Assembly (NCBI RefSeq): GCF_024502345.1
Contig: NZ_JALDNN010000001.1
Length of the DNA stretch: 64,000 nucleotides
From: Escherichia coli
Lineage (GTDB): Bacteria > Pseudomonadota > Gammaproteobacteria > Enterobacterales > Enterobacteriaceae
Direction: 5' to 3' (one strand)
Shown here one piece after another: positions 1,585 through 6,554 of this stretch (its first letter is position 1; each line of letters starts with the position of its first letter). The position numbers and the translations under genes are program-made. Below the pieces are notes generated by a model. It saw only the letters and a list, made by a program, of their open reading frames with translations. It had not been told where the DNA came from and searched no databases.

Positions 1585-1725
1585 ATGTCAGATATCACCG
1601 CAAATGTTGTGGTAAGCATGCCTTCGCAACTCTTCACTATGGCGCGTTCTTTTAAAGCGGTTGCCAATGGTAAAATTTATATCGGTAAAATTGACACTGA
1701 CCCGGTAAATCCTGAAAACCAGATT
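1585..1725 (+). pseudogene. P22-type tailspike gene, 5' fragment (head-binding domain), cut off by an IS insertion
   Basis: [47 protein letters not shown] matches the P22 gp9 N-terminus almost residue for residue; the frame then runs into IS-end sequence and stops. Confidence 0.8.
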
Positions 1726-1761
1726 GATCTTGACCCTCCATCTCCGAACAGCTTTTGTATC

Positions 1762-2643
1762 TTAAGTTAACGATGTCCGCTGCCGCCGGTATTCCCTCGG
1801 GGAGTGATATCCCAGCGCGCTGTGCGGGTGGTTTTCATTGTAATGCGTGAACGCTACTGCAAGGTTTCGCAGTGCTGTTCTCACATCCGGTTTTGGCATG
1901 AACGCGATATAGTCTTCTTTCATCGTTTTCACGAACCGTTCGGCCATGCCATTACTCTGCGGGCTGCTCACCGCTGTTGTGCAGGGCTCCAGATTCAGCT
2001 CTCTCGCGAACCTCCGCGTTTCATACGCGGTATACGCTGAACCGTTATCCGTCAGCCACTGCACCGCTGTGTCGGGCAACCTGTCGCCGAAGCGCTTTTC
2101 CACCGACCTCAGCATCACATCCTGCACGGTCGAACTGTCATAGCCTCCCGTGCTTGCTGCCCAGTCTATGGCCTCACGGTCGCAGCAGTCCAGCGCGAAC
2201 GTTACCCGCAGTTTTTCGCCGTTGTCGCAGCCGAACTCGAAGCCATCTGAACACCAGCGCATATCGCTTTCTGCCACCGCTATCTTGCCCTTATGTTCAC
2301 GCTTCGGTCGCTCTGGTTTGTGATGCAACAACAACAGGTTATGCTCGCTCATTATCCTGTAAAGCCGTTTGGCATTCACAGGTGGCTGTCCCTCTGTGCG
2401 ACGTTGCTTGCGCAGGATGCCCCACACGCGTCGATAACCATAACTCGGCATATCGCTGATAATGTTGAGGATAGCCGACAGTATTTCTGCGTCTGCTTCT
2501 TCATTACGCCGGTTACAGCGCCTGTCCTGCCAGTCGGCAGAACGGTTAATCCGCAGTGACAGTTGCGCACGCGACACGCCCATGGTCCGGCTGACCATGG
2601 CTATTCCCCGTCCTTTGGCAACAAGGGCGCGTGCGCTATCCAT
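1762..2643 (-). CDS. IS transposase OrfB (DDE integrase-like catalytic domain), IS2 InsD homologue
   Basis: 293 aa; motifs shared with IS2 InsD ([55 protein letters not shown]). Confidence 0.85.
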
Positions 2644-2996
2644 TTTCGCGACTGACCGTACTCCACGGCTTCTTTCAGGATCTCAACTTCCATCGTTTTC
2701 TTGCCCAGAAGGCGCTGAAGCTCCCGGACCTGCTTCAGAGCAGCAGTAAGCTCAGAAGCAGGAACGACTTCCTCTCCAGCCGCAACGGCGGTGAGGCTGC
2801 CTTCCTGATATTGCTTCTTCCACTTAAACAGCAGGCTGGGCTGGATACCATGCAGGCGGGCGACATGGGAGACATTCATACCCGGCTCCATCGTCTGCTG
2901 GATAATGGCGATCTTCTCCTGAGGAGTTTTACGTTTACGGACTTCTTGCCCTAACAGGATCCCGGTCATCTCAAAATTGGCGTTAGTGTTAGACAT
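2601..2996 (-). CDS. IS transposase OrfA (HTH DNA-binding), IS2 InsC homologue
   Basis: 131 aa; [61 protein letters not shown] closely parallels IS2 InsC; overlaps OrfB in the -1 frame. Confidence 0.85.
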
Positions 2997-3060
2997 ATAT
3001 TCAAGCCTATCTCTTATCTGGAGATACAGCTACTGTCCGGTGTTTCAGGGGGCTACATCA

Positions 3061-5026
3061 TCCTGAAAACCAGATTCAGGTTTATGTGGAGAATGAGGAT
3101 GGTTCTCACGTTCCTGTTTCGCAGCCAATCATCATTAACGCCGCTGGTTATCCTGTATATAACGGACAGATTGCCAAGTTCGTAACTGTGCAAGGCCACT
3201 CTATGGCTGTTTATGATGCATATGGTGCGCAGCAGTTTTATTTCCCTAATGTGCTGAAATACGACCCTGATCAGTTAAGGAAGGAAATTACATCCACAGG
3301 GAAAGGAAAAGGTGCGGATATGATCCCCCTTCAGCAGGGTGGAACAGTTCAAAGTGCTATATATTATGTTACGCCATCATCGGCAGGAATAACTGGTGAT
3401 GGGACAGATGAAGGAGAAAAATTAATCTATTTGCTAAATAGATATGATGGGTATGTTATCGACCTGTCTGGAATGACAATTAAAACAAGCGAGATGATTA
3501 GTGTTGTTTTCAACAAAAAAACAACAATAAGAAATGGAACTATTATCTATACTGGAGCAGTAAGTCCATTTGTTTTAAAAATAACGTGCTCATCCGTTCT
3601 TTCCATAGAGGATATTGCCATTGACGGCAAGAACAATGCTGCAAAGCTACTCTATGCGCTTTCATCCGATAACAACGCAAAAATATCTATTTCAGGCTAT
3701 TCTGGAAGAAACGCTAGGGAAGCAATTGACACAGGATTATCAACTGCTGCATATATTACGGCAGGCTCATTGTTTAGATGGAAAGAGATTAGGCTGTCAG
3801 ATTCCTCAGCTTATGATATTTCAAGCTCAGGTGGTTCTAATGTTGGTCGCGGGTTTATGGTTCAAAACTTTGAATATTGCTATGTTAGGAATATTTCAGT
3901 ATTCCGAGTTGGACCATATCAGGATGCGGATGGGATATATGCATCATCCCCTAACTATTTATCAGCAGTATTTGATATTAGTGATTCGTATTTTGAAGAC
4001 TGCCAGAAGAGATCAGTCAAATCACAGATAATGAACTCTCGGGTGAGCAATATTGTAGAGCGGCGCACACAGGCCTTTGCTGTTGCTGCTGGGCAGTCAG
4101 CAGTAGACTTGCAGGCAGGAGGTTCTCTAGACGGACTTAGTTGCTTCTATGCTGACGGAGCAGCCCCACAGTCAATCGTTTCAGGTGGTCTTGTCAGTGG
4201 AGCACCGACATTTCGAGGTATTTCTTTGCGAAATATTGACGTCAACTGCGAAGATCCGTCAGATATTATCTCTCGTCTGGTATCATTTTATAATAACTCG
4301 CCGAATACATATGATGGTTACATTGCTGAAAATATAAAATGTAATGCCATAATAGAGAATGTTGGATTTCTGTATAGCAATACAGGAAACACAAATTTTA
4401 ATGTATATCTCTTCAAAGAGGTTATCTTCAGAAACATTCAGTCGTCAGGAATGGCAGGAACGGTGCCAACTGCTGTAATTCAAATAAGCAGAGGTTCCTC
4501 TGCGTATGTGAAGGCTATAGTACGGGTGCAAAACCTCAATCTTGGCGATGGAAATATCGCACCATTGTATTATCTTGACCCATTGCCAGGGGTTACAACT
4601 TTTCTTGATGTTTTATTTCGTCAAGTAAGTAATTGCAGAGGGTTTGATACGCTAACTAACGTAAATTCCGATACATCTCAACGCATCTATGCAGTAACTG
4701 CAGACGTAGCTGAAAATGAATCTACAACACTTTTAATACCAATAAAGACAACAAATGGAAAAACGGCAGTAAAAATATCTGTAATGTATAACTCAAACAG
4801 GGATGAGCATGCAGCAAAGCTATTCACAGAAGGATACTGGTTCTTCGGGTTATCATTGCCATATTATATAGAATCAGTCGCTGGAGTAAAAACACAAACA
4901 AACGTTGGATCTATCGTGGTCACAGTTGCTGAAAACAATTTAGTTGTAAAAAAAATCGCTGGAACCACCGCTGCAAGCGGGCGGATGACAGTGATTATTG
5001 AGCATATATCATGCGTGAATATGTAG
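3061..5026 (+). pseudogene. P22-type tailspike gene, 3' portion (rest of head-binding domain plus a divergent beta-helix receptor-binding domain)
   Basis: Resumes …(PENQI)[50 protein letters not shown]… matching P22 gp9 residues ~45-110, then diverges; the six-frame ORF (3086..5026) starts at an internal Met. AT-rich relative to the flanks. Confidence 0.75.
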
Positions 5027-5160
5027 GTTAATCTGATAAATTGGGAATGGATTGGTTGCAGAATGGCGCCCTCTGTGAGACATCTGCTGCATTAGGAGTG
5101 ATAACATACATCATCAACGATGCGATGTGAGTTTGATTATTGCACGGTTTATAGGTGGCG

Positions 5161-6318
5161 CTATGCCACCCTCTCATCAATCCAGTCCGCCCACCACTGC
5201 ATCATTTCTCTGCGCTTATCGAGATACTGAGCATGGTTGTAAATCCCACGCACAGATCCGCCGTTGGCATGTGCCAGTTGCACTTCAATAGCGTCAGCAG
5301 GCCATTCGTGCTCGTTCATAATCGTGCTGAATTCATGTCTGAATCCGTGACCGCTATCCAGACCCTCATAGCCGATTTGTTTGATCACAAGTAGCACCGC
5401 GTTCTCGCAGATTGGCTTCTTCTTATCGTTGCGCCCGGCAAAAACAAATTCTGATACTGGTTTGGTGATGGAGCTTAACGTAGTGAGAAGTTCAACCACC
5501 TGGTCTGACATCGGGACCACATGAATTTTGCGTCCTTTCATCACACTGGCGTCGATGGTGATAATCCTGTTTTCAAAATCGACGTTCTTCCATAGCATAG
5601 AACGAAGCTCTTTCGTTCTTAGGGCTGTGTAGCGTAAAACTTTGGTCGCAATGAGCGATACAATACTTCCTGAAAATGTTGCCAGTGCTTTGTTGAATGC
5701 CGGGATCTGGTCTGCAGGAAGAAACGGGAAGTTCTTCTTGCGGTATCCCTTCATGGCGTCAGCAAGGTCAGGTGCCGGGTTATATTTAGCCCTACCAGTA
5801 ACAATAGCGTAACGGAAAACCTCGCCGCATCTTCTGCGGGCTTTGTTGGCTCTCTCCATTGCGCCGCGATCTTCAAATCTGCGGATTACTTCCAGCAGTT
5901 GCATCGGCTCAATATCCTGAATTTCAAGGCCGCCGATGATGGGTAAAATGTCGTCATCAAACATTTTGGCAAGTTCAGTTGCATAGCCTACTGACCAGAC
6001 TTGCTTCTTGTGCTCGTACCACTCCTTGTAAATCGCACTAAATGAATTGTTGTTAGACGAAGCCTTTTTCGCCTTTACCGGATCGATGCCAACCGAGATG
6101 TCTTTCCTCGCAGTCCATGCCTTATCCCTTGCTTCCTGCAAAGTCATAAGCGGATATTTTCCGACGGTCAGGATTTTCTCCTTACCGTCAATCTTGTAGC
6201 GAAGCTGCCATACCTTTTTCCCGGATACAGGAACATAAAGGTACAGGCCATTACCATCGAGAAGGCGGTATGGTTTTTCTTTCGGCTTTGCTGCTTCAAT
6301 CTGCTTAACGGTGAGCAT
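5161..6318 (-). CDS. intS: Prophage integrase, tyrosine recombinase (IntS / CPS-53 type)
   Basis: Near-identical by eye to E. coli IntS as I recall it (MLTVKQIEAAKPKEKPYRLLDGNGLYLYVPVSGKKVWQLRYKIDGKEK…HGFRHEF…); next to the tRNA. An in-frame upstream ATG at 6354 would give 397 aa; the annotated start is probably the MLTVKQ Met. Confidence 0.9.
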   Translation of the reverse strand: MLTVKQIEAAKPKEKPYRLLDGNGLYLYVPVSGKKVWQLRYKIDGKEKILTVGKYPLMTLQEARDKAWTARKDISVGIDPVKAKKASSNNNSFSAIYKEWYEHKKQVWSVGYATELAKMFDDDILPIIGGLEIQDIEPMQLLEVIRRFEDRGAMERANKARRRCGEVFRYAIVTGRAKYNPAPDLADAMKGYRKKNFPFLPADQIPAFNKALATFSGSIVSLIATKVLRYTALRTKELRSMLWKNVDFENRIITIDASVMKGRKIHVVPMSDQVVELLTTLSSITKPVSEFVFAGRNDKKKPICENAVLLVIKQIGYEGLDSGHGFRHEFSTIMNEHEWPADAIEVQLAHANGGSVRGIYNHAQYLDKRREMMQWWADWIDERVA

Positions 6319-6479
6319 GGGTAAAAATCCGGTGGGTAAAATTATTTTATCCACTTTTTACCCGTCATGGAGTGCGGCTGTCAACGATCTGAAGCGAACC
6401 ATGACGAACTGTTAGTTTCCGGGAGGCTTGATATTCTGGGGATTTTACGGACTGGTACGGATGGGAGCGAACTGATAAA

Positions 6480-6554
6480 TGGTGTCCCCTGCAGGAATCG
6501 AACCTGCAATTAGCCCTTAGGAGGGGCTCGTTATATCCATTTAACTAAGAGGAC
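6480..6554 (-). tRNA. argW: tRNA-Arg (anticodon CCU); prophage attachment site
   Basis: Reverse complement reads GTCCTCTTAGTTAAATGGATATAACGAGCCCCTCCTAAGGGCTAATTGCAGGTTCGATTCCTGCAGGGGACACCA, with a CCT anticodon in the loop, T-arm GGTTCGATTCC and 3' CCA. Confidence 0.9.

Follow-up and report, generated by a model that had tools for sequence, protein, structure and literature searches.

The Tailspike Gene and Its Receptor-Binding Module

The window analyzed here is a stretch of 64,000 nucleotides from Escherichia coli (contig NZ_JALDNN010000001.1, RefSeq assembly GCF_024502345.1), and our analysis concerns the tailspike gene of a prophage remnant located at its beginning. Positions 3278-5026 very likely code for the C-terminal part, receptor-binding and putatively enzymatic, of a tailspike of the P22 type (Lederbergvirus-like). 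This module is a probable O-antigen depolymerase that has been exchanged as a cassette and that belongs, in this genome, to a gene broken by an insertion sequence (IS). The underlying architecture, in which a conserved head-binding anchor carries a swapped beta-helix module after recombination at the junction, is well established; the receptor-binding domain (RBD) found here is a member of a small family without a characterized representative. The two parts of the protein that are encoded downstream of the IS are as follows.

3077..3277, + strand: remaining part of the head-binding (virion-anchor) domain, shared by P22-like tailspikes and covering full-length residues 48 to about 114 (PF09008, Sf6 gp14 and P22 chains, argW prophage DNA)
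3278..5026, + strand: exchanged receptor-binding and putative depolymerase module, residues about 115-696 plus stop codon (composition, mosaic borders, homologues, fold)

The 3' piece of the gene possesses a P22-type head-binding domain, as it matches the Pfam family Head_binding (PF09008) with an E value of 8.9e-35. A sequence search of the PDB, which included full-length tailspike chains of 623-667 amino acids, gave matches to Sf6 gp14 and P22 tailspike chains that are confined to residues 1-68 of the open reading frame (ORF), corresponding to residues 51-118 of the full-length protein. By BLASTP, the tailspike of another argW prophage (L023) shows 84% identity in residues 1-134 and is unrelated from there on. 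The earlier note on this DNA, made from the sequence by eye, had stated that resemblance to P22 gp9 is lost after the head-binding domain, and the PDB, Pfam and BLASTP comparisons, which all stop near residue 113-118, bear this out. Its span for the divergent domain, 3300-5026, proved correct at the distal end, where the ORF at 3086-5026 (+ strand) terminates at exactly that coordinate; the proximal border lies slightly upstream, at about 3270-3280, as judged from argW prophage DNA.

With P22 gp9, Sf6 gp14 and HK620 gp9 the tailspike of the window has in common the N-terminal head-binding domain (PF09008; 7sg7, 2xc1, 8tvr), the overall plan of an anchor followed by a right-handed beta-helix and a C-terminal beta domain, and the location of the gene, which closes the late operon next to int and the attachment site (mnt/arc - tailspike - intS - argW in the window). 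It differs from all three in that no similarity is detectable past residue 113-118 or thereabouts.

Predicted Fold of the Module

We modeled the module as an AlphaFold2 monomer from a 19-sequence alignment. The model has a mean predicted local distance difference test (pLDDT) score of 85.6 and a predicted template modeling (pTM) score of 0.75, and consists of a beta-helix followed by a beta domain. Its parts map onto the DNA as given below.

3374..3442, + strand: N-terminal cap (N-cap) of the beta-helix, module residues about 27-49, a diverged form of the 'GAxGDGvTDD' start of Pectate_lyase_3-type proteins (PF12708) (profile of the RBD-only alignment A2, which holds 22 sequences; Pfam in relatives; model helices)
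3455..4585, + strand: body of the right-handed parallel beta-helix, about 10 three-stranded coils, module residues about 54-430, full-length about 174-550
4604..5023, + strand: C-terminal all-beta domain, module residues about 437-576 (strand-only model, pLDDT 60-85)

The N-cap is formed by model helices at module residues 27-30 and 40-49. The module resembles the Pectate_lyase_3 or 'Rhamnogalacturonase A/epimerase, pectate lyase-like' superfamily (PF12708) in having a 'GDG.TD(D/E)' N-cap and then a beta-helix; the window protein itself stays below the Pfam threshold, and 4 of the 22 module-family members reach PF12708 or PF12218. The C-terminal domain is conserved across the module family (e.g., YNSNRD and KLFTEG) and, by analogy with other tailspikes, is probably a trimer-stabilizing or distal domain.

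Among the structural neighbors of the module, the K5 lyase KflA (2x3h), RbmB (9ozd) and the Klebsiella K1 lyases (7w1c/9k4a) rank at the top, and AlgE4 (2pyg) is likewise listed; Foldseek also matched Acinetobacter phage tailspikes, the Phi92 colanidase, HK620 and Sf6. The best viral predicted structure (BFVD) is an unnamed protein of 954 amino acids with 29% identity. The predicted fold is the right-handed parallel beta-helix that P22-type tailspikes have at their C-terminal end and that polysaccharide lyases such as KflA, PL6 and RbmB have as well. The earlier note had suspected beta-helix-like repeats past the head-binding domain and had suggested structure prediction for this region; the model and its tailspike matches confirm the suspicion, and the result that the note had named as a refutation, a prediction lacking such a fold, was not obtained.

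Composition, Exchange and Distribution of the Module

The segment 3300-5026 has a GC content of 39.8%, compared to 50.7% for the whole window, 49.7% for the adjacent core genes, 47.6% for int, 54.6% for the IS, and 43.6% for the head-binding part of the tailspike gene. Equally low values occur in just 2.2% of all 1727-bp segments over the 64 kb, all of them at the tailspike locus or in the yfdF region. The module is rich in serine (10.8%), glycine (8.7%), isoleucine (8.7%) and asparagine (7.1%). Both the AT-richness relative to the flanks and the Ser/Asn/Gly/Ile-rich composition, on which the earlier note had built its proposal of a horizontally exchanged module, are therefore real properties of this segment, and the exchange itself can be observed by comparison with related loci. 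Relative to the P22-like argW prophages L002, L022 and L023, DNA similarity ends at 3270-3280 (about residue 114) and restarts at 5098-5175, just past the stop codon and at the 3' end of int. Between the window and E. coli HCP6S3_I2 (L001), the 1749 bp of the module align with 0 mismatches, compared to identities of 97.1% for int and of 89.3% and 94.5% for the two head-binding segments; with L020, the module reaches 99.4% identity, int 96.5%, and the head-binding segments 91-95%. Because a 100% identical module is thus embedded in flanks that differ by 3-11%, the module moves horizontally as a cassette between diverged backbones.

Relatives of the module form 19 clusters in a set of 5.8 billion proteins (30-63% identity over 94-100% of the module length), and 32 representatives were retrieved from a set of 1.84 billion proteins; all homologues taken together are 25-63% identical over the whole module. 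A second, profile-based search of the 5.8-billion set yielded no relatives beyond the 19 clusters. The names on record are 'hypothetical protein', 'phage head-binding domain-containing protein' and 'MAG TPA: tailspike protein', and the named hosts are E. coli and Enterobacter hormaechei. The module is preceded by anchors of the types PF09008 (P22 type), PF18668 (TSP1/gp66 type), PF03906 plus PF18668 (T7 fiber type), PF12708, and PF12218; the virion anchors that carry it are of at least four kinds. Related modules are also present, after PF18668 or T7-fiber-type anchors, on metagenomic contigs of about 43 kb (P0006, P0010, P0060 and P0061, 42.7-44.2 kb; also P0009 and P0013). These contigs suggest complete genomes of uncultured siphophages or podophages that carry the same receptor-binding family.

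Among 50,697 phage records, megablast gave no match to the module, and the sole tblastn match (E value threshold 1e-3) is a stretch of 55 amino acids at the module start. Only 1 of 5426 complete E. coli genomes, that of HCP6S3_I2, contains the module, sensitive blastn searches included. The profile of the RBD-only alignment A2 matched PDB entries with its N-cap motif only, among them GH55 glucanases, the Phi92 gp150 colanidase, AlgE4/AlgE6, and endosialidases. A profile of the family alignment that includes the N-termini of the homologues (A1) matched only their foreign N-terminal anchors in the PDB and was discarded as evidence on the module. We likewise rejected a match of residues 1-374 to PHROG 8280 ('tail spike protein with colanic acid degradation activity'): it vanishes when the module is searched alone, which matches no PHROG, and is therefore carried by the head-binding domain.

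Two readings would deny the module its foreign origin or its novelty. The low GC content might arise only from a composition rich in Ser, Asn, Ile and Tyr, in a module ancestral to the prophage lineage. These residues, which have AT-rich codons, are indeed enriched 1.45-1.9 times, and the GC content at codon positions 1 and 2 is moderately low (0.455 and 0.429). However, the GC content at third codon positions (GC3) is only 31%, compared to 53% in int and 0.44 in the head-binding part, so that the AT bias resides in the nucleotides and not only in the choice of amino acids. Together with the abrupt breaks of identity at both module borders, the identical module on backbones 3-11% apart, and its occurrence on unrelated anchors, this makes an ancestral module very improbable. 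Even less credible is that the module is a close variant of a characterized tailspike (P22, Sf6, HK620, CUS-3 or others), so that its specificity would be known already. What it shares with these proteins is the head-binding domain. Neither a single query nor a profile found a PDB sequence match to the module beyond anchor and N-cap, structural identity is at most 14% in the PDB and 29% to the unnamed viral protein, and the phage records contribute nothing but the 55-residue stretch; within the databases searched, this reading is refuted. The RBD accordingly shows no similarity to the characterized types, i.e., the endorhamnosidases of P22 and Sf6, the endo-N-acetylglucosaminidase of HK620, and the endosialidases. 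The suggestion in the earlier note that BLAST might reveal serotype phages with this domain led to no nucleotide match among the phage records, and near-identity to a characterized tailspike, which the note had named as a refutation, was not observed.

Modular receptor-binding proteins of E. coli phages, in which a conserved anchor is combined with a swapped RBD, have been described for Lederberg-, Kaguna- and Kutterviruses and others (Pas et al., 2023; PMC10408124). The same principle of anchor plus swapped RBD applies at the locus in the window, where the swap can be seen directly; the proteins of the survey are serogroup-specific, and our module has no assigned serogroup. The module accessions are absent from the supplements of this survey of tailspikes and serogroups, and no mention of them was found among the papers searched.

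Invariant Residues and a Proposed Substrate Groove

The A2 alignment contains 24 columns that are invariant among its 22 sequences, which are 25-62% identical. The invariant polar residues, in full-length numbering, are K237, R305, D330, D332, K358, R359, K362, Q364, Q387 and R519. The strand map of the model places them in coils 3-7 at a spacing of approximately one coil, a pattern that would be expected of a longitudinal substrate groove.

3644..4096, + strand: stretch with the invariant polar residues K237-Q387, proposed lining of the groove (A2 invariance, with a putative role)

At the level of sequence, D330 and D332 together with K358, R359, K362 and R305 are compatible with the catalytic set of beta-helix lyases, and hydrolases score similarly among the structural matches. 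Two Asp residues in a loop and a Lys/Arg cluster resemble the metal ligands and basic catalyst of such lyases, and likewise the 'DD ... RIK' arrangement with which GH28 enzymes grip a uronate carboxylate. By residue type, they are unlike the Glu/Asp pairs of the P22, Sf6 and HK620 endoglycosidases. The combination of an invariant Asp-x-Asp with Lys and Arg weakly suggests that the substrate is acidic.

In the mechanism that we propose, residues 1 to about 114 of the intact 696-residue protein would attach the spike, presumably a trimer, to the phage tail, and the rest of the protein would form the Pectate_lyase_3-like N-cap, the right-handed parallel beta-helix, and the C-terminal beta domain. 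The module is predicted most likely to bind a repeating, probably acidic polysaccharide on the host surface and to cleave it endolytically; by this cleavage, the virion would gain access to the outer membrane. D330, D332, K237, R305, K358, R359 and K362, with Q364 and Q387, may line the groove, and the chemistry could be either a metal-assisted beta-elimination (lyase) or that of a GH28-like hydrolase gripping a uronate carboxylate.

The Target Glycan

Hints to the target come from the neighborhoods of related tailspikes. The homologue P0015, which is 50% identical and has the same P22-type anchor, adjoins an OafA-like gene of the Acyl_transf_3 plus SGNH type (L024, 8164-9996). In the P22-like argW prophages L002 and L023, the slot between tailspike and int holds an O-antigen polymerase gene (8891-10972) and an acyltransferase gene (11895-12887), respectively. 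Conversion genes usually modify the receptor of the spike of their own phage, as do gtr of P22 and oac of Sf6. Since genes for O-antigen modification are found beside the tailspikes of relatives, O-antigen is most probably, by analogy, the target of the module as well. The O-antigen cluster of HCP6S3_I2, in the order galF-wzx-wecB/mnaA-GT4-GT-wzy-GT4-gnd (L004, 9390-16472; NZ_CM149867.1, 1759389-1766471), contains three or four glycosyltransferase genes and occurs in 2 of the 5426 complete genomes. The paper on this strain states no serotype, and NCBIfam matches to the cluster did not point to a serogroup. The module is thus paired with a rare O-antigen cluster in this strain, a single observation that is suggestive. 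A bolder proposal, which we consider conceivable but rather unlikely, is that the module founds a new polysaccharide-degrading family, with the GPYQDxDG loop and the CQKRSxKSQ strand as its catalytic elements, and that it is specific for the rare, possibly unnamed O-antigen of this galF-wzx-mnaA-GT-GT-wzy-GT-gnd cluster. If true, the module protein could be used as a reagent against that glycan, either for typing or for decapsulation.

Several observations weigh against an enzyme directed at O-antigen. Apart from PF09008, no Pfam family scores above threshold in the window protein, beta-helix and lyase families included. The structural matches are generic for the fold, with no more than 14% identity in the PDB, and lyases, epimerases and hydrolases score almost equally, so that these matches do not separate lyase from hydrolase chemistry. 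No source gives a functional name for any family member, and the cluster listings contain no cultured phage. There are only two invariant acidic residues, both in one loop; P22, Sf6 and HK620 carry two or three carboxylates on adjacent coils. Moreover, the ORF list for 5027-5160 contains no seroconversion gene between tailspike and int in the window, and the O-antigen argument draws on relatives of this prophage.

These points bear on two other readings of the module's function. A beta-helix that binds glycans in the manner of an adhesin and does not cleave them would fit the finding that Pfam and profile searches recognize no catalytic motif, yet we regard it as improbable: D330, D332, K358, R359, K362, R305 and K237 are kept invariant across 25-62% identity, as is typical of an active site, and the known P22-type beta-helix tailspikes (P22, Sf6, HK620) are enzymes. 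More serious, if still somewhat unlikely, is a reading in which the module depolymerizes not O-antigen but a capsule (K antigen), colanic acid or a different exopolysaccharide. The K5 lyase, RbmB and the Klebsiella K1 lyases at the top of the structural neighbors are all enzymes acting on capsules or exopolysaccharides, the Phi92 colanidase appears among both the Foldseek and the N-cap motif matches, and the invariant basic residues suggest an acidic polymer. In addition, P22-like phages with a capsule-specific spike exist (e.g., CUS-3 with its endosialidase), and some family members have anchors of the T7 fiber type (PF03906), which are typical of podophages that target capsules. Against this stand the fold-level nature of the structural matches, the loss of the PHROG match to colanic acid degradation when the module is searched alone, and the O-antigen-modifying genes that adjoin relatives with the same anchor; the charge of the substrate does not discriminate, since many E. 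coli O-antigens are acidic too. We favor a depolymerase of O-antigen as the probable function of the module.

Receptor-binding modules of tailspikes set the host range of phages, and they are used as serotyping reagents, as parts for the retargeting of pyocins and phages, and as anti-virulence depolymerases. Characterizing this module would extend the catalogue of glycan specificities by one entry and, possibly, that of enzyme families as well. The locus also provides a clean example of a cassette swap at the junction of head-binding domain and RBD. The understanding of tailspikes is left unchanged by it, and the local copy is a pseudogene in a decaying prophage; the module is still a legitimate target for depolymerase discovery.

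Disruption of the Tailspike Gene and Decay of the Prophage

The tailspike gene of the window is a recent IS-generated pseudogene that is split after codon 47. The following elements make up the disrupted region upstream of 3077.

1585..1725, + strand: 5' fragment of the tailspike gene, codons 1-47 (...NPENQI), start of the head-binding domain (read from the sequence; collinear with intact alleles of 696 amino acids)
1725..3060, - strand: IS3-family element, 1336 bp, TG...CA ends (identical copies elsewhere, PHROG transposase families)
2601-2996, - strand: orfA of the IS
1762-2643, - strand: orfB of the IS

Many E. coli genomes carry identical copies of the element, annotated as IS3 family transposase, at unrelated locations; orfA and orfB are IS2-like. 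The target duplication TCCTGAAAACCAGAT flanks the IS at 1710-1724 and 3061-3075 and is part of a slightly longer direct repeat (1709-1725 and 3060-3076) with the sequence ATCCTGAAAACCAGATT; once the ends of the IS are taken into account, the duplication amounts to 15-17 bp. Target duplications of IS3-family elements are usually 3-5 bp and hence much shorter. We considered the long repeat as an anomaly of this locus and rejected that idea: the same IS has generated duplications of 15-16 bp at three unrelated E. coli sites (L025, L026 and L027), so that their length is a property of the element.

The tailspike gene picks up again at 3077 and runs to its stop codon at 5024-5026; the IS leaves no intact reading frame in the window. 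That the IS is the cause follows from deletion of 1726-3076 in silico, after which the sequence aligns without gaps over 4706 bp to the intact allele of L006 (GCA_050022275.1), with 2 mismatches (99.96%). Intact alleles of 696 amino acids (WP_060659378.1) are present at L001, L005-L014 and L020; their protein cluster comprises about 40 sequences, with GCA_050022275.1, GCA_001484235.1, GCA_001484085.1, GCA_042164615.1 and GCF_056269865.1 among the carrier assemblies.

The IS3-family element presumably entered an argW prophage that was already degraded. Independently of the IS, the gene for an SLT-domain ejection protein has lost about 2 kb that are present in L023 (6629-8648 of that locus), a deletion that leaves 151 amino acids (194-649). 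In near-identical sister loci (L006 and L011), cI-cro-cII are joined to a fragment of gene 20; the tailspike ORF is still intact in those sister strains despite the decay of the prophage. Upstream of 3086 we found no promoter-like site that could serve the 3' fragment, as the counts of such sites equal the shuffled expectation. Since the prophage is degraded, the gene is split by the IS, and no promoter precedes the 3' piece, the module is not expected to function in this genome.

More complete prophages carry the same tailspike in other strains. GCA_042164615.1 has an apparently complete P22-like late-gene set. E. coli HCP6S3_I2 harbors a fuller prophage, with a homologue of gene 16 that is listed as a pseudogene (incomplete). 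In L020 and L001 the full order is gp4-gp10-gp26-gp7-gp20-gp16-mnt/arc-ant-tailspike-int.

Genes Surrounding the Tailspike

Positions 1 to about 6400 of the window constitute the right end of the P22-like prophage, which is integrated at argW; yfdC and mlaA come after intS. The features downstream of the tailspike gene are listed here.

5027..5160, + strand: spacer from the tailspike stop codon to int, the initial 70 bp or so being part of the exchanged module (similarity to other argW prophages resumes at 5098-5175)
5161..6354, - strand: prophage integrase IntS (intS) (ORF list, PHROG match)
6480..6554, - strand: tRNA-Arg(CCU), argW, the attachment site of the prophage

Between the SLT remnant and the mnt/arc-like gene lies an ORF of 173 amino acids (642-1163, - strand) with a lipoprotein-like signal (LLVGC). 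It matches phrog_6067, a family of unknown function, keeps the same position in related prophages, and could be a moron or exclusion gene. Farther downstream, the yfdF allele (8823-10043, - strand), which matches PHROG 29678 of unknown function, has a GC content of about 33% and encodes 406 amino acids, 54 more than the HCP6S3_I2 allele (352 amino acids). In the longer allele, a segment in which the motif 'I(G/D)xxSNDTDxIT..IxNQEPIxxPxN' recurs appears to have been duplicated.

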